14,220 nucleotides of DNA, from the UHGV virus genome UHGV-0158879. The stretch is one strand, 5' to 3'. Source of the DNA: a virus. The notes under the pieces are model-generated. The model had not been told where the DNA came from. It made no database searches and saw only the letters and a list, made by a program, of their open reading frames with translations. Position numbers and translations under genes: made by a program. Shown here one piece after another: positions 50 through 8,673 of the stretch. Position 1 is the first letter of the stretch. Each line of letters starts with the position of its first letter.

Positions 50-777
50 TTATTGCGTGAGCTTCGCATGATAGCTGGAGCATCTCTTGTCATCACTAAT
101 TAGCTCCGCTTTATCCGTTCTTGCCCATATTATATTTCTTTTTATTATTTTTGCTGGATTACCGGCTGCTGCACACATAGATGGCACATCTTTAGTTACA
201 ATACTCCCATACCCAATGACAGATCCGCTTCCAACAGATACCCCTTTCATTATAGAGACATTTCTCCCTACCCATACGTAACTAGATATAATGATATCTT
301 TTGCCCAATTAATCCTTTTTTTGCTATGAATATCAAATATAGGATGCCCATCTGATGCACGCAAAATAACATCTCTTGCTATCATGCAGTCATGGCCAAT
401 TGTAACATTGCACTTATCAGTGACGACTTCAAAACCTGCACCTATTGTCGTTCTTCTACCGATAATAACTTTTGAACCTTTTGTTGCGACAATATCACCT
501 TTAATCTTACTGTTTTTATGTATTCTTACGTAATTATTATCACCCCTAAATATTACGGTAAGCCATCGACACTCAACATCATCTTCTATAATAAGTTTGT
601 TATTGTTTCCATTGAACTGAACTTTATTCTCTTTGCTATTTACAAGATCTCCACATACAAAAATATTACCTGATCCATTATCATCAACGGAAAACGAGTC
701 TTGAGTCTTGAGTCTTGAGTCTTGAGTCTTGAGTCTTGAGTCTTGAGTCTTGAGTCTTGAGTCTTGAGTCTTGACAT
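50..777 (-). CDS. neuO: Hexapeptide-repeat sugar O-acetyltransferase (polysialic acid O-acetyltransferase NeuO-like), phase-variable; translationally OFF in this copy
   Basis: Minus-strand ATG at 777..775 with AGGA about 8 nt upstream, then TC plus 11 x AAGACTC (coding strand). The acetyltransferase frame (ORF track 50..385, open upstream through the repeats) shows left-handed beta-helix hexapeptide repeats (VWVGRNVSIMKGVSVGSGSVIGYGSIVTKDV). ATG to stop is 728 nt, not a multiple of 3; the ATG frame stops at TAA 642..640. AAGACTC heptads in the 5' coding region match what is described for neuO of prophage CUS-3 (from memory). Confidence 0.8.
696..772. repeat. 11 perfect tandem copies of heptanucleotide GAGTCTT (AAGACTC on the coding strand)
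   Basis: Counted directly: units begin at 696, 703, 710, 717, 724, 731, 738, 745, 752, 759, 766, with no mismatches. Unit length 7 is not a multiple of 3. Confidence 0.97.
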
Positions 778-930: not shown

Positions 931-3876
931 TTAGTGCTTCCCTTCTATTAAGTCTAACCTAGCTTTTATTCTTTCTATTTCTCTGCGCTGCCATGCCGCC
1001 TCGATATAGAATAAGAGATCAGGTCTGACCCCCCATCTAGATCCTGCTGGCGTTATTTCAACGCGCTCAATGATGTCTTCCATTACCATCACTGGATTAT
1101 CATCCTCATCAACAATGATGCTCCCGTCATTATCAGTCAGCGGCATTTCCCTTTGGCCAGTAATGACGTCATCATATACTGCGGGATAATCGTCATAGCA
1201 AAGAAACGCATAGCGGCATGTTGTGCTTTCTTCTTCCATGAGTCCGTGAGAAATAAGAACATCACGAAGTTGCTGCGCGATTACACCATGATGTATCCTC
1301 GCCCCTTCTTCCCCCTTTATAGCGACAGCGTTCAGCCATTTATAAGCGATATACCTGACGTCACCCCAGGCATCCAGCAATGCTTCGTCAGGAGAGACCG
1401 GCTCTGTCTTTAATGTTCCGTCACTGGTAACCACAGGATTGGAGCCAAGATAAACTGTCGAGAACCTGTTTCCCGGACCACCAAGAGCATTTACATTATC
1501 AAGATAAGGTTTAACATCTCCGTTCTCAAAAAGATGTTCGAGTGCGTTATATACCGCGCGACGTGGAGTACTGCTTCCGGAACCATGCAACGTTATCATT
1601 GCACCATCTGCTGAAGACGTTGTTTCACCGCCGCTAACGATTAATCTCTGAGCGGTAACATCATCAGACGGTACTTTCTTCGCAATAATGGCGTAATTAC
1701 CCTCAAGTTTGACTTCCGCGCGAACTTGTCCTGATGTACCTGCATGGACAGTCAGTGACTGGACGGCAACATCATCTGTGAAATCAACGGGTACAGGAAC
1801 CGTCCTCACGCCTGACGTCGACATAAAAGTAGGAAGCGTTCTGTTAGGAGTGGCTCCGTAGACAAAATCCCTTGAAACAAATTCTTCCTGTTTAATTTTC
1901 ACCCTGAAACAATACAAATCAGCCGGGTGACCATCGTGAACATAAGGATATTTTCTGTTGTTATCCCCTATGCTCCATGGGTTTAGAAAGTCTTCCCCAC
2001 CGAAAATGTAGTACAGCCAGTTGTCTTTGATACAAACTGAACCAACACCAACCGCAGAGTTAACTATTCCGCCCTGATAAATCTGATCAGTAACATTAAC
2101 CCACTCTACATTATCCAGACTCCACTCATTGACGTTAACTCTGGTCATAAATGTTCTTGGATAATTTCCTGCATAACGGTTATCAGGTTCTCCTCCTTCC
2201 CACTCACCAAATGCGCGCTCACTGCCAAAAATAATCAGCTCATCGCCAACTTTGGCAAAAGGAAGGTTTGAGTGATGAACATTATTTGGGAAGCGAAGAG
2301 AATTCCATGATGTACCTAAATCAGAGCTTCTGTGCAATGAACTACCGGGTTGAGTACTTAATGTCCCCCTGGTCGTCAGATACAGAATGCCATCATAATA
2401 TTTTACACATGGCTCAGATGCATTCGCCTCATATTCTACAGGTATGCGTCTGCGAACAAAGCTACCAGGAGAACCGAAAGCATCAGAGAAATAGAGTATC
2501 CCAAGCTCGCGTGGATCAATATCACCATTATGGTAGCCAACAGCAAAACTGTTATCGCTAATCGTCGCAAAACTGTGAATCTCAGTAACAGGAGTGCTTC
2601 CGTCAACAAAAGAAGGAATAGTTCCAAGACTGGTTTTTCTCCATGGTGACGAGTGAAATGATGTACCAAAACTCCAGTATCTACCCTCGTTATTCTGATC
2701 CACATCCTGGGTATTTTGCGTCGTAACTGTAAAAGTATTTTTATCAATAACAGTAGTCACCGTCATATTCCCGGTAACACCTGTAACACCAGAGTTTGAG
2801 AAGTTGACAAAATCACCAGCAAATAATCCGTGATCAGTAATGCGAATATAAGCGACTTGCTGATTTGCTGCTTTCGTTATACCACCATAAACGCGAAGGC
2901 TGCGACTCATTGGGCGATCCCACAACTCTGCAACCTGCAGTTTATTTCCGCTCACGGTCCGCGTCTCAATTACAGCAAAAAGGCGATTTCTGACAACCCC
3001 CATACTCATGCAGTGATAGTTAACTGTGGGATAGTTTTCATGTAAATCTGTAAGCCATTCCGGCGTTGTCCAGGTCTTCCCGTCATCTCCTGAGCGAACC
3101 CATGCAACATGGAGGTTATTTACACCATGGCGGTCTCCAGCCATAAAAGGCGCATAGATGACATTGTCATATACAAACGTTTTATCCTGCGTCCAGGCGT
3201 TGTACCACGGTGTATCTGTAATTTTAAATAACTCTCCCTGGATAAAATCTTCAGAAGCATAAAAAAGAGGCTGACCCGGTATTCTCTCAAATAAAAAACG
3301 AGCATTTTTAAATCGACTGACATCTGGAAGAGTTGATACTTTAAAAGTAAGCCCTCGCCCATCTATCTTTTCACCACCTGTTGCAACAGAAAGTAATTCT
3401 GATAGAGCTGATGTGTCATCATGAACACCATCACCAATAGCCCCCCAACCTCTTACATCATAACTGTCTCTCCATCTTGCTATCTGAAGTTTTGGGTATT
3501 TATTCGCTCCATCTGGGTCTTCTAATTGCTGCCGTAACTGATCAGGATCATACTTCAGCACATTAGGAAAATAGAACTGCTGCGCACCATACGCATCATA
3601 AACAGCCATAGAATGGCCTTGCACGGTAACGAATTTGGCAATCTGTCCGTTATATACCGGATATCCAGCAGCGTTAATGATTATTGGTTGCGAAACAGGA
3701 ATGTGAGAACCGTCTTCGTTCTCTACATAAACCTGAATCTGGTTTTCAGGATTTACCGGGTCAGTGTCAATTTTACCGATATAAATTTTGCCATTGGCTA
3801 CGGCTTTAAAAGAACGCGCCATAGTGAAGAGTTGCGAAGGCATACTCACTACAACATTGGCTGTAATGTCTGTCAT
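931..3876 (-). CDS. Tailspike: P22 gp9-type head-binding N-terminal domain fused to endosialidase-like body
   Basis: 981-aa ORF with GGAG 8 nt upstream of ATG 3876. N-terminus [11 protein letters not shown]...[33 protein letters not shown] matches the P22 tailspike N-terminus as I recall it. Two sialidase Asp-box motifs ([17 protein letters not shown]). The C-terminal ~150 aa resemble the auto-cleaving intramolecular chaperone domain of endosialidases (from memory). Confidence 0.9.
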
Positions 3877-3944
3877 TTAATTTGCTCCAGATACAAGGAA
3901 TCGCCGCAGCATTGCCACAGTGATGCATTATTAATCAAACAAAG

Positions 3945-3959
3945 AGACCACTGTGGTCT
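3945..3959. promoter_or_regulatory. Operator-like palindrome in the mnt/tailspike divergent intergenic region
   Basis: AGACCAC-T-GTGGTCT is a perfect 7-bp-arm inverted repeat; a related CCACAGTG lies at 3915..3922. It overlaps a possible -35 for mnt (a GATAAT -10 candidate at 3980..3985). The style resembles the P22 Mnt operator (GTCCAC..GTGGAC-like, from memory). Confidence 0.45.
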
Positions 3960-4022
3960 TATTGAGGATGCAACCAGCAGATAATAAGATGCCGATCCAC
4001 TCACAAAAGCGAGGCATCAAGA

Positions 4023-4274
4023 ATGGGAAGAGATGACCCGCAATTTAATCTGCGGCTACCTTACGAATTAAAGGAAAAACTAAAACAGCGAGCCAAATCC
4101 AATGGCCGCTCTCTTAATTCAGAATTAGTTCAGATAGTGACTGATGCTGTATCAAAGCCATCCAAAATTTCAGGCTATCGAGACGATGCGGAACGCATCG
4201 CTGATGAGCAGTCAGAGCTTGTTAAGAAGATGGTGTTTGATACGCTGAAGGATTTGTACAAAAAACCCACCTGA
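4023..4274 (+). CDS. mnt: Mnt-type ribbon-helix-helix repressor
   Basis: 83 aa, GAGG 8 nt upstream. The C-terminal two-thirds (NGRS.NSEL.QIV.DA.SKPS...GYR.DAER.ADEQSELVKKMVFDTLKDLYKK) closely matches P22 Mnt as I recall it. N-terminal strand DPQFNLRLP. Confidence 0.9.
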   Translation: MGRDDPQFNLRLPYELKEKLKQRAKSNGRSLNSELVQIVTDAVSKPSKISGYRDDAERIADEQSELVKKMVFDTLKDLYKKPT

Positions 4275-4290
4275 AGGTGGGTTAATTTTT
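4264..4290 (+). terminator. Rho-independent terminator after mnt
   Basis: AACCCACC-tgaa-GGTGGGTT 8-bp stem (4264..4283) followed by AATTTTT. The hairpin spans the mnt stop codon, and the A-run upstream allows bidirectional function. Confidence 0.6.
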
Positions 4291-4373
4291 GCATTTACCT
4301 GGGCCATATTGACTACTTATAAAATGAGATCAATATTTAATCGCCCAATAACGGGTGTATGTTGAGGTATATC

Positions 4374-4553
4374 ATGGCGAAAAAACCAGGTGAAAACACA
4401 GGAAAAAACGGCGGAATATACCAAGAAGTTGGCCCACGCGGCGGTAAGAAAGACAATTTTGCAACCGTCAAGGACAACGAAAGGCTTCCACCAACAACAA
4501 AGCCAGGTCATGGCTGGGTATTGGATAAGCGAACTCCAGACAGCAAAAAGTAA
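4374..4553 (+). CDS. Small conserved hypothetical protein (59 aa), Gly/Lys/Pro-rich
   Basis: ATG 4374 with GAGG 6 nt upstream, double stop TAATAA, terminator immediately downstream. Position and length match the small ORF between sieA and mnt in P22-like phages (from memory). A resemblance to YjzC-like small proteins is unverified. Confidence 0.6.
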   Translation: MAKKPGENTGKNGGIYQEVGPRGGKKDNFATVKDNERLPPTTKPGHGWVLDKRTPDSKK

Positions 4554-4559
4554 TAATCA

Positions 4560-4581
4560 AGCCGGGTCACTCCGGCTTTTT
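4560..4581 (+). terminator. Rho-independent terminator after the 59-aa gene
   Basis: AGCCGG-gtcact-CCGGCT stem followed by TTTTT. The T-run is on the plus strand only. Confidence 0.6.
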
Positions 4582-4932
4582 GATATGTCGCTCGCAGAAC
4601 TCAACAAGCCTGCTCATTAAGTAGCAGTAAGTCTCGTTGGCTCTTCCTGGTTCAACATCAACACCTACCCTTGAGCAGATATCGAATGCCATGTGAGCGC
4701 ACTCATGGGCAATAGTAGATAGTTTGCCATTGAACACGCCTATCACATGCAAAACACCATTCTCGCTACTCATTGTATGAGACGCTCCGTTGGCGTCCGA
4801 GTCATGCACGTCAACGCCAAGTTTTTGATGCAGGCGTTGCCATTCTGGAAAGTCTCTACAAAACACAATTGTACCGCTCTCAAAGAGCGGAACGAGCATC
4901 TTTGGTACGTTTCCAATGTTAACTTTTTTCAT
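4567..4932 (-). CDS. Hypothetical protein with HExxH motif (possible small zinc metallopeptidase-like)
   Basis: 121-aa ORF with AGGA 4 nt upstream of ATG 4932. Contains [11 protein letters not shown] (H-E-x-x-H) followed by a downstream Glu. The function is a guess from the motif alone. Confidence 0.5.
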
Positions 4933-5479: not shown

Positions 5480-7321
5480 CTACTGCCGGGTAGCTTCGTT
5501 AACTAAGAGCGGGCGCACGGCAGTAGCCGCCTGATTTAGCGCTCTTTCATAAGCTGGCGTTCCAGCTTTAGTGTTTGCCAGACGTAAGAGCGCATTCCTT
5601 GCTGCTTTGGATTCATACAAGCGCATCATTGCACCGAAACCAGCCTCAAGCCCCATTGATACGCCAAGAGTCGTAGTTGCGCCAATCGTCCTTATCCTGT
5701 TGGCTTGCGATTGCCCCGTCTGAGTTACTACATTTGCGGTGTCTGATCTTGCTGCTTGCTGTAGAACTTCATGAAGAGCATCAAGTTCTTTCATGTGCTT
5801 TCCAGAAAAAATAGTGTTGTAAATTTCACCGCCTGACTGAGATTTCAGCTTATTAACTTCCGTGATGAACTTGGCTGGAGAGTCACCGGCCTTTTCCGCT
5901 ATTTTGCTGACGTAAGCTGCACGCATAGCATCTTTCCCTTTATCATCCAATGCGCTCCAGATTCGTTTCACGTCAGATGGTTTTCTGCTTAATACAACAG
6001 TATTTATAAGTTCAGGACTGGCTTCACTGCTTGCCTTGTTGAGCTTGTTAGCAATGTTTTTATTAAGCACCTTATTATAAACGTTTGCATAATCGGAATT
6101 TGCTTTAAGGTATTTTGCTGCGTCTGAAGCACCGAGGTTTTTGGCAACTGCGTTACGAAGGTCTTTTGACATTGCATTCTCTACCATATTGGTAGCTGCT
6201 TTTGCCTGGTTGGGGAAGACCATGGCATCTCCCTGAACATTAGATCTAAATGCTGTTCTGTGCTGGCGCAAGAGATCAAACGTAACATCCAAATCAGTTG
6301 CAGGGTTTGCTAATTCTTCACGTAGGTTACGCAAGGATGTAAGCAGGTTTTGATTGGCAGAAGTCCCAAGCCGTTCCTGTCTTGCGATCGCTGTATTCAG
6401 AGCATTCATGGTATTTGTGGTATCAACTGCGGCATTACCCATTTTATTGGTGACGTCATTGATAACAGCGCCAGCGGCATCCTTCCGTCCCCTTAACGTG
6501 GTGGTCAGAGATCTCACCACATCATCAGGGTTGTACTCACCAAAACGGTCAAAATAATTGCTTACCAGCTTACTACGCGTTGCATATTGCTCCGCTCGCT
6601 TTGAGCCTGTCCCGAGCAAAGCCCCCTCAGCATCCTGAGTAAGTCCGCGAGTGAAAGCATTTTTCGGCGGGATAACATCAGATGTCATTGGTGTCACGCC
6701 CATCGATTCTGATGTGGCAATTTTCTTTGCCACTTCTGGCGCAATATCACCTTTTATAGCCGTTATTCCACGCCCTATTCCCTTTGCTGCTGCGGAAAGA
6801 ACACCCTGAGCGGCAAGGTTAACTCCGGCATTTTTAGCTGCATTTTGTGCGAAATCACCTTTCTGATTTGCGGCCTCTGCCAGTGATCCAATAGCCATGC
6901 TTCCTGCCGTTCCAACTCCTGGAACTAAATACCCGCCAATTGTTTCTCCAGCTTGAGCGTAGGGGTCTGTCGGTCTGTCTACTGGACGATAAACATCATC
7001 CAAAACCTTGGGGCCACCAAGCCCCTGACTGATTGCATTAATCAGACTTGCGCCGCCCTGTAATACGTCAAATGGTATGTTTACCAGACCACGACCAGCC
7101 TGTTCTGCAATTTGCCCTGCACTTTGACCACCAGTGAGCCAATCGCCAGCTTGTTGCATCAATGATGGTTCTTCCCGTGTTGGTGCATTATTGGCCTGAT
7201 TAACTGTTTGTTGCTGAACAGCCTGACCAGCAAAATACTCATCAATGGCGGTGCCAATATCTTCCGTGCTCGTACCATCAGGGAAGGTAAATGTCTTACC
7301 GTTTGCAGTTACTTTCATCAT
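5480..7321 (-). CDS. Ejection (DNA-transfer) protein, P22 gp16-like
   Basis: 612/613 aa, Ala/Gly/Gln-rich. N-terminus [22 protein letters not shown] as I recall for P22 gp16. ATGATG start overlaps the upstream stop (ATGA), and it lies directly downstream of the gp20-like gene as in P22. Confidence 0.8.
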
Positions 7322-8673
7322 TCCACCGTAAATTGAATGCCTGATTTTGACGTGTAGCTACCTCCTGCTGATTGCTGAGTAGCTGGCTGTTGCCTTGATG
7401 ATTTCTTCCCGCCATTACCGACATTAACGTTATATTGCTGGTTGTAATTGTCGGTATATTGCTGAATGTCGCGCATTGATTGTTGCAGTGCTTCAGGGCT
7501 TGAGAAATCAACCTGTGGCATACCTTGAAAATACATCTTTGCTTCTGCAACGGTGTTGATACCGGATGCCCCCATGTCTCTGGCTGCTGCAATGCCCTGA
7601 TTCTGCATCTTTCCTTGGATTCGCTGTGCAGCGTTGTATAGTTTCCTCTGATCACCACCAGATGCACGGCTACGAATATCTGCACCAAGAGCAGGAGAAC
7701 CTGAAGAGCCTGTAATGCCAGTCATGAAGCCAAGATCGTCAATTGATGCACCAGAAATTGCATCAAGATCTTTCTTCATTGCGTAATTCTGCGCGCTTGC
7801 TGCCGATGTAGCCGGAGCGGCAATAGAACCAGCAGGAACGCGAACCATATTCCCCTCGTTGTCGATACCTTCGTAGAACGCATTAGCCCCAGCGCCGTGA
7901 AGCTTCCCGCCTACCGTTACAGTTCTGCCATCTGCTAACTGAACTGTACGCTCATTATTCCCAACCGCCCCTTTCATTGATGCTCTCTGCATCGATAAAT
8001 CCTGACCGCGCATCGTGATATTCTGACCACGCGCTGTTAGCGCCTCGCCAGCCTGATTGCTGCGGATTGTCTCTGCCAGTCTGCCTCGGTCAATCTCACG
8101 ACCAGCTATCTTGTCCTGAACATTGAAGTAATCAATCGGACCAAGCGCAGCCATCCCAAGGTGATCAACAAACTCACCAAATCCTGAAGGATTCTGCTGA
8201 TACATCTGAGCAACGCTGTTAGGGTCAACACCGACGCGAGTCAGTTCCTTGGCGTTGTTTTGCAGCCATGATTGCATTGCTTCTGGAGACGATGACGCAA
8301 GGCGTGCGCCAGCCGCTAAGGTGCCGATAGAATTACGCTGGTCTTCATCAATGAATCCCATGCCTTTACGAACAGATTCAATCTGGTCTGGATATTGAGT
8401 AGCCAACTGACGCAAAGCACCGCGATCACCAGACGCATAAGCTTTAGCGTATGCCTGCTGAAATTCTTTCTGCCGCTGAGCCTGCTTTTCCTGCTGAAAA
8501 ACACCCGCAATACCTGAAAGGCCTTGCAAAGCAGTCAGCCCAACATTGTTAGCGCCTGAACGCTCAATATCATTGTTCTGCCTGATAAGCTGAAGCGTAT
8601 TGCCGATGTCATTTACGCTCGGAGCGTTTGAGTTGACACCACCGATACCAGCCAACAATCGGCATTTATTCAC
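7318..8673 (-). CDS. Ejection protein, P22 gp20-like; starts at GTG 1 nt after the terminase stop, possibly N-terminally truncated
   Basis: 451-aa low-complexity protein of gp20 size, positioned before gp16. The only start is GTG 8673; the frame is closed by a TGA about 13 codons upstream with no ATG. Confidence 0.65.

Follow-up and report, generated by a model that had tools for sequence, protein, structure and literature searches.

Orphan Gln-class Mnt module with a predicted shift in operator specificity beside the tailspike gene of a defective P22-like prophage

The UHGV virus genome UHGV-0158879, a stretch of 14,220 nucleotides that is referred to here as the window, is a defective P22-like prophage (Lederbergvirus, CUS-3-related). 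It contains a gene for an Mnt-type repressor, mnt, that diverges from the gene for an endosialidase tailspike across an intergenic region of 146 bp (3877..4022). The translation of mnt (MGRDDPQFNLRLPYELKEKLKQRAKSNGRSLNSELVQIVTDAVSKPSKISGYRDDAERIADEQSELVKKMVFDTLKDLYKKPT) contains an N-terminal Arc-like DNA-binding domain of the ribbon-helix-helix (RHH) type (Pfam Arc PF03869, residues 3-50, E=2.8e-22) and a C-terminal Mnt tetramerisation coiled coil (Pfam Repressor_Mnt PF11423, residues 53-80, E=2.2e-18). PDB entry 1mnt was found to match residues 3-77 (E=2.8e-34) and entry 1qey residues 53-83 (E=3.1e-12). Judged by these matches, the product is a genuine full Mnt, with both the RHH domain and the tetramerisation helix. 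It is 76% identical to P22 Mnt in an alignment to the proteins translated from the P22 record, is far nearer to Mnt (E=2.8e-34) than to Arc (E=1.3e-06), and is 100% identical to a protein already annotated as Mnt in phage vB_EcoP-720R6. The RHH domain also matches chain G of the recently deposited PDB entry 9pio, a 79-residue "Arc family DNA-binding protein" (E=1e-06).

The original prediction had described this locus as a Mnt-like body with an Arc-like DNA-reading strand, next to a tailspike gene and lacking arc and ant, and this description was borne out. The neighbour of mnt is the tailspike gene, with no arc or ant reading frame between the two. The beta-strand of the window protein is PQFNLRLP, compared with PHFNFRMP for Mnt and PQFNLRWP for Arc of P22 (the original prediction gave both correctly), and agrees with Arc at 7 of 8 positions and with P22 Mnt at 5 of 8; it is not the ordinary Mnt strand. 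Only the strand residues are Arc-like, whereas the N-terminal arm (GRDD) and all of the sequence C-terminal to the strand are Mnt-like. Arc itself consists of 53 amino acids, carries the arm MKGMSKM and has no tetramerisation domain, unlike the window protein with its 83 residues and Arg2 in the arm. The base-contacting residues of P22 Mnt, known from work of the Sauer laboratory, are Arg2, His6, Asn8 and Arg10; in the same numbering of the mature P22 protein, the window protein has Arg2, Gln6, Asn8 and Arg10. The full P22-type contact set is therefore not present, a difference that bears on P22 operator specificity and not on family membership. In addition, the core-facing residues are Leu9 and Leu11 instead of Phe and Met, and the outward-facing residues Gln-Asn-Arg are common to the window strand and the Arc strand. 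The protein is referred to below as a Gln-class, or Q-type, Mnt.

The intergenic region contains the perfect palindrome that the original prediction had pointed out, AGACCACTGTGGTCT, and no other match with up to two mismatches occurs in the window (0.05 expected by chance). The palindrome ends 2 nucleotides ahead of the -35 hexamer of the predicted mnt promoter, Pmnt, and its centre lies at about -45 relative to the predicted mnt transcription start. This is the register of the P22 Mnt operator, AGGTCCAC-C-GTGGACCT, which ends just ahead of the P22 Pmnt -35 hexamer, and the window layout aligns with it base for base. The homologous P22 site is the Mnt operator established by experiment in the Sauer laboratory. 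The window site retains the Mnt core, CAC-N-GTG, with unchanged spacing and has no Arc-type 21-bp operator, but its half-site differs from that of P22 at positions 5 and 7 (GTGGTCT versus GTGGACC). By analogy with P22, a Mnt tetramer would bind this single operator with a specificity unlike that of P22 Mnt.

Related loci were gathered from viral contigs, phage records and assemblies, and three natural classes of Mnt with their palindromes were recognized. In the P22-like His/Asn class (7 distinct sequences), the strand PHFNFRMP accompanies the half-site GTGGACC, and the neighbour of mnt is arc. In the Gln/Asn class of the window, PQFNLRLP accompanies GTGGTC(T) and the neighbour is the tailspike gene; 51 distinct sequences of this class have a perfect palindrome and 6 an imperfect one, and those of the 6 that were inspected deviate at one or a few arm positions. 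In the Lys/Thr class of Salmonella and Serratia (3 distinct sequences), PKFTFRMP, with Lys6 and Thr8, accompanies GTGACCT, and mnt adjoins arc and an antirepressor gene of the P22_AR_N or Bro-N type. Half-site type follows strand type without exception in these 51+7+3 distinct sequences. The three class palindromes share one distance to the Pmnt -35 hexamer (centre, 7 nucleotides, then TATTG). The half-sites vary at positions 4, 5 and 7, and position 5 is A with His, T with Gln and C with Lys. In the Mnt operator, residue 6 reads around half-site position 5, as the work of Sauer and Stormo reportedly indicated. Because the class palindromes switch together with the strand residues, it is well supported, on good comparative evidence, that the strand change accompanies a change in operator specificity, which was a further claim of the original prediction. 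No description of this co-variation was found in the literature searched.

Conservation within the classes is consistent with protein recognition of the palindrome. The operator arms are kept in the 51 sequences over four genera, and the centre base is free (18 G, 12 C, 11 T and 10 A). In the Lys/Thr loci (L206 and L207 from Salmonella, L208 from Serratia), the palindrome AAGGTCAC-C-GTGACCTT is located about 75 nucleotides ahead of mnt (at 3001); outside it, the intergenic regions of the two hosts have diverged. Phage Gally, whose complete genome spans 38.7 kb, has one palindrome of the window type, between mnt and the tailspike gene. Among the matches listed in a scan of viral contigs, there were 47 Pmnt-type sites and 73 exact palindrome matches without a nearby RHH gene, and a scan of species-representative genomes gave 8 chance matches, all in unrelated metagenome-assembled genomes. 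An AGA core is common to the outer part of the predicted half-site, (A/T)AGAC, and to the TAGA boxes of the Arc operator; any functional meaning of this likeness would be speculative. As a separate observation, at one locus (L209, 3001..3261) a gene that likewise faces a tailspike gene encodes a fourth N-terminal type (MMYSKYDEAQFHLRLT...) joined to a Mnt C-terminal domain; no palindrome of at least 6 bp was found upstream of that Mnt-like gene.

The dependence of operator choice on a few strand residues has a laboratory precedent. Knight and Sauer in 1989, Youderian in 1983 and the Stormo laboratory reportedly showed, with an Arc-Mnt hybrid and with Mnt His6 mutants, that N-terminal residues, notably residue 6, set operator specificity. 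The natural classes vary at residue 6 too, and their operators vary at positions adjacent to those studied. Compared with the laboratory mutants, the window class appears to be a natural co-evolved pair, in which residue 6 (together with residue 8 in the Lys class) and not the whole arm has been swapped.

Table 1. Positions of the genes and sequence features of the window.
Feature	Position	Strand	Description or basis
mnt, Gln-class (Q-type) Mnt repressor, 83 amino acids	4023..4274	+	open reading frame list, Pfam, PDB, P22 alignment
Predicted Mnt operator, AGACCAC-T-GTGGTCT	3945..3959	none	dyad, position and conservation; conserved core GACCAC-N-GTGGTC at 3946..3958
Predicted Pmnt	3962..3990	+	-35 TTGAGG (3962..3967), 17-nucleotide spacer, -10 TAAGAT (3985..3990); positional homologue of P22 Pmnt TTGAGA-17-TATCAT
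Endosialidase tailspike gene, 981 amino acids	931..3876	-	divergent neighbour of mnt; Pfam Head_binding, End_beta_propel, End_tail_spike
Decayed ant promoter remnant	3967..3995	-	-35 equivalent TCGGCA (3995..3990), -10 equivalent TGCATC (3972..3967); alignment to P22 Pant
Putative mnt leader hairpin, GAUGCC...GGCAUC	3988..4018	+	fold -11.7 kcal/mol, z=-1.9; overlaps the Shine-Dalgarno sequence GAGG and buries part of it
Tailspike 5' leader hairpin, CUGUGGC-AAU-GCUGCGG	3904..3920	-	7 bp; pairing in 22 distinct sequences
Bidirectional intrinsic terminator	4264..4283	both	8-bp stem AACCCACC/GGTGGGTT, T-runs on each strand; overlaps the mnt stop codon
neuO start	777	-	
neuO heptanucleotide repeats	696..774		11 copies of AAGACTC
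neuO 5' open reading frame	640..777		45 amino acids
neuO hexapeptide-transferase part	50..385		in another frame
Promoter-like sites upstream of neuO	-35 at 822; -35 at 865		ATGACA-17-TAAAAT; TTGACG-17-AAAAAT
Ejection-protein gene	7318..8673	-	
Terminase large subunit gene	8675..10000	-	
Terminase small subunit gene	9997..10524	-	

In the immI region of P22, the Arc operator fills the Pmnt spacer, and a strong divergent promoter, Pant, starts transcription into the Mnt operator. The window resembles immI in its two-domain Mnt, its operator register, its homologous Pmnt, the same terminator and the same place between the gp16 ejection gene and the tailspike gene, and differs from it by the loss of arc, ant, sar and the Arc operator. 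The Pmnt spacer (3968..3984, ATGCAACCAGCAGATAA) has neither a dyad nor paired TAGA boxes; Salmonella Q-type alleles retain only AGTAGA, a remnant of the Arc operator. Promoter strength was compared by means of a simple -35/-10 weight matrix, for which the background per 186 bp has a median of 7.5 and a 90th percentile of 10.4. Pmnt is the top promoter-like site of the intergenic region with a score of 11.0, compared with 13.6 for P22 Pmnt, and its hexamers are conserved across genera.

The situation on the opposite strand is different. Where P22 Pant reads TTGACA-17-TATATT and scores 16.0, the aligned window sequence lacks the A at -11 and the T at -7, and it was not among the top-scoring sites of the minus strand. 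The best tailspike-facing site of the window scores 5.1, and a built-in consensus promoter scan placed no promoter facing the tailspike gene in the intergenic region. Between 3877 and 5600, the tailspike-sense strand has no candidate that scores 9.5 or more and nothing that exceeds background. Among the Q-type loci, the -10 equivalent varies (TGCATC, TGTATC, TATATC or TATAAC) and ends in C in all of them, in place of the near-invariant T. Because Pant has decayed in the window, the classical job of Mnt, namely holding the antirepressor off, cannot apply there.

Two conserved leader hairpins flank the operator. Both arms of the mnt leader hairpin are conserved in sequence in all genera, from E. 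coli to Serratia, which precludes a covariation test, and the role of this element is putative. The tailspike leader hairpin, which sits about 25 nucleotides 5' of the tailspike start codon, is paired in 95.5% of the cells of the alignment, with two pairs changed on both sides and with G-U changes as well. It was found in P22 and CUS-3, both of which carry ant, and in all orphan-Mnt loci, and it may stabilise the leader or act as a processing or translation element. This hairpin also accounts for the "second related site" of the original prediction. Such a sequence, CCACAGTG (3915..3922), does exist in the window allele, but its complementarity to the operator core over 8 nucleotides is peculiar to that allele; it is one arm of the leader hairpin, is not conserved in related loci, and was rejected as a second operator.

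The orphan arrangement, mnt without arc and ant, is widespread. Gln-class loci were found in E. coli, Salmonella, Klebsiella and Serratia, and neither arc nor ant lies next to mnt in the window or in any of the 57 distinct Q-type sequences. Among the loci gathered, every mnt with the strand PQFNLRLP directly adjoins a tailspike gene (Head_binding), with a spacer of 132-148 bp. Of the 120 clusters listed in a protein search, at least 82, and hence most, are of the Gln class; one of them, from Salmonella, occurs on at least 1000 contigs. The full module is present in 111 of 5426 complete E. coli genomes. The reading frame is intact, at 82-84 amino acids, in most Q-type clusters over the four genera, and the first 19 Mnt residues are nearly invariant among the orphan alleles. 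The ratio of nonsynonymous to synonymous divergence (dN/dS) among these alleles is 0.07-0.10, with dS ranging from 0.5 to more than 2 between genera, meaning that synonymous positions have diverged strongly or are saturated. Conservation is poor in the spacer on the tailspike side and is seen in the operator arms, in the Pmnt hexamers and in the mnt leader. By these measures, the orphan mnt and its operator are under strong purifying selection, and the gene is not decaying.

The mnt-only form of the "ant moron" has been published for ST64T, ST104 and Para1 (PMC2629481) and for phage L, where a remnant was one of two options raised (PMC8022706). In the accessible portions of these accounts (Villafane et al., 2008; Zaworski et al., 2020), the gene is called a poorly conserved mnt homologue or a possible remnant, and a change in the reading head or the operator is not mentioned. 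The window shares its module, its operator and its divergent tailspike arrangement with the mnt-only ant morons of ST64T, ST104, L, SE1, ST160, Gally and vB_EcoP-720R6. Its Mnt is 100% identical to that of vB_EcoP-720R6 and 92% identical to that of ST160, and the DNA of the module is 97% identical to that of Gally. It differs from these relatives in its flanks only, which comprise a K1 endosialidase tailspike gene, P22-like genes downstream of mnt and a defective prophage. CUS-3 (L001, 6466..7495) is unlike the window in having an antirepressor gene and two tandem mnt-like genes, one with the strand PQVNLRLP and the other P22-like, with His6. No Q-type operator was found before CUS-3 ant; direct repeats (GGTACGCAT) take the place of the Mnt-type palindrome there, and the RHH type differs. 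The antisense RNA of the BTP1 tailspike gene was considered as a parallel and judged not relevant, since BTP1 appears from its description to have no mnt at that place (PMC7067206).

What does the orphan Mnt regulate? The Gln-class Mnt of the window belongs to an orphan module, found in P22-like phages, that has lost its partner genes, and it is probably a specificity-shifted, autoregulated repressor. In this mechanism, a Mnt tetramer would bind one operator at about -45 of Pmnt. Pmnt would be the only promoter that Mnt can directly influence, giving an autoregulatory loop of either sign as the core circuit, and a dedicated tailspike promoter would not be what Mnt represses. Since there is a single palindrome and Pmnt alone adjoins it, the circuit is one of self-regulation, which is probable from the arrangement of the sites. 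Any further output would act through the same site, which separates the tailspike gene from all transcription upstream; the likeliest such output would be to hinder RNA polymerase that leaks past terminators toward the tailspike gene in the lysogen. In any case, the orphan Mnt must do something besides antirepressor control. One Salmonella prophage (L226, 3306..5565) has a Gln-class orphan mnt beside its tailspike gene together with a separate Bro-N antirepressor module, which encodes RHH proteins of 53 and 104 amino acids and has different palindromes (e.g. AAGGCAAATTGCCTT). That this prophage keeps the tailspike-side mnt despite its own antirepressor module indicates that the orphan Mnt is tied to the tailspike junction and not to antirepressor control.

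Expression data are available for the Gally prophage. By RNA-seq, mnt was observed not to exceed background in LB overnight; in macrophages it rose 40-fold and was the most strongly induced Gally gene (PMC9928086). RNA of the tailspike gene and of its downstream neighbour was found to rise in parallel with mnt, whereas the upstream late ejection genes stayed silent or at background (PMC9928086). Some transcription therefore reaches the tailspike gene in lysogens independently of the late operon, and its positive correlation with mnt is at odds with plain repression by Mnt.

Several points weigh against a self-regulating repressor that shields the tailspike gene. The joint rise of mnt and tailspike RNA in Gally does not look like an effective Mnt block of tailspike-directed transcription, and a Gally delta-mnt strain had no macrophage-survival phenotype (PMC9928086). 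A repressor that regulates only itself has no obvious selective value, yet selection on the gene is strong, and for this reason a further target or function is likely, for example at host sites, in other prophages or in incoming phages. In addition, everything about DNA binding by the Gln-class Mnt is carried over from P22, and the co-variation of strand and operator spans three lineages and thus few independent events.

A more specific proposal, possible but unlikely, is that the module serves as a roadblock or insulator. Operator-bound Mnt would hinder polymerase arriving from upstream, whether from moron promoters or by leakage past the terminators at 4559..4578 and 4264..4283, and would thereby hold down the level of tailspike depolymerase in the lysogen or tune late read-through into the tailspike gene. 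The operator does stand between all upstream minus-strand transcription and the tailspike gene, and the module adjoins that gene in all 57 distinct Q-type sequences, even where an antirepressor module is present elsewhere, as in L226. For P22, Villafane et al. suggested a possible influence of Mnt and Arc on late read-through into the tailspike gene (PMC2629481). In Gally, however, mnt and tailspike transcripts are positively correlated, which speaks against an efficient block.

It is also conceivable, with a small probability, that the resident Mnt confers immunity in trans, by repressing the ant promoter of incoming P22-like phages of the same operator class and thus shielding the prophage from antirepressor-mediated induction. 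This is half of the established immI role of P22 Mnt, and it would account for both the selection on an orphan repressor and the diversification into specificity classes. However, at none of the loci was a Q-type operator found before arc or ant, each of the 57 distinct Q-type sequences faces the leader of a tailspike gene, the 73 other exact palindrome matches listed for viral contigs have no RHH gene nearby, and the antirepressor module of L226 uses different palindromes. Because no antirepressor promoter with a Gln-class operator was found among the matches listed, this proposal is less likely than a roadblock.

The original prediction had gone further and proposed that a Pant-like promoter overlapped by the operator drives the tailspike gene and neuO, with Mnt repressing both in the lysogen. 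In its favour, the operator occupies the spot where P22 Pant transcripts start, and promoter activity or read-through must reach the tailspike gene in Gally lysogens (PMC9928086). This part of the prediction did not hold up well and is now improbable. The hexamers are degenerate, the best facing score lies below the background median, the -10 equivalent differs from locus to locus and has a terminal C in each, no candidate promoter was found over 1.7 kb upstream, and mnt and tailspike RNA go up together in Gally. Control of neuO fares no better: promoter-like sites of its own lie just ahead of the neuO ATG, so that no promoter beyond the tailspike gene is required. The neuO frame is moreover broken with 11 repeats, which is the phase-OFF state; one added repeat would restore the frame.

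That the palindrome is instead an RNA hairpin or a weak terminator for tailspike-sense transcripts, and not a protein-binding site, is very improbable. A terminator scan does list it as terminator-like on the minus strand (AGACCACAGTGGTCT then CTTTGTTTGA), and a T-rich tract follows it in several lineages; however, only 6 stem pairs are usable, Salmonella alleles have no T-tract, the sequence of the arms, beyond their pairing, is fixed within a class and switches with the reading residues, and the homologous P22 site is, from work of the Sauer laboratory, an experimentally established Mnt operator. Least probable of all is that mnt and the palindrome are functionless leftovers of a deleted immI region, the option raised for phage L (PMC8022706): the loss or decay of arc, ant, the Arc operator and Pant and the defective state of the prophage itself would fit, but this option is already largely refuted by the selection data, as low dN/dS at saturated synonymous sites, with intact reading frames in four genera and an operator that is invariant while its flanks diverge, argues that mnt is maintained by selection, and mnt is expressed and regulated in Gally.

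The surroundings of the module are those of a K1-type prophage. The tailspike is about 99% identical to CUS-3 siaK1. The window has a 100% match in E. coli EC931, adjoining bioA/ybhB, and the matching chromosome has a truncated holin gene and an IS5 nearby. The ejection-protein gene is followed directly by the terminase genes, and the portal, scaffold, coat and head-completion genes are missing. A mosaic joint lies at 4176..4283, where Gally/720R6-like DNA (3600..4283, 97-99% identity) overlaps P22-like DNA (4176..4700, 97%); the conserved 3' third of mnt and its terminator thus serve different modules as a common linker for recombination.

Mnt and Arc are textbook models of DNA recognition by a beta-sheet, and knowledge of them comes mostly from laboratory mutants of the P22 proteins. 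The window copy is an ordinary member of a widespread and already annotated module in a defective K1-type prophage, and its practical message is modest. A bolder proposition has two parts: that the three classes embody a natural recognition code for the RHH beta-sheet, and that the Gln-class Mnt, conserved in at least four enterobacterial genera, is no relic but has been re-purposed as a stand-alone regulator of the tailspike junction, gating transcription into the depolymerase and downstream conversion genes according to host conditions. As a whole, this proposition must be regarded as doubtful. The interest of natural protein/operator classes and of a strongly conserved orphan repressor is moderate, and mainly for specialists. 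Nevertheless, at least three natural Mnt classes, of which the P22 class is not the commonest, appear to change residue 6 (with residue 8 in one of them) jointly with the half-site, and would offer ready protein/operator pairs for working out recognition rules. For the phages of this group, the comparison sharpens the question posed for L and ST64T, as the orphan mnt is conserved, lies on the tailspike side, would act through a single site and is regulated by conditions in at least one lysogen.

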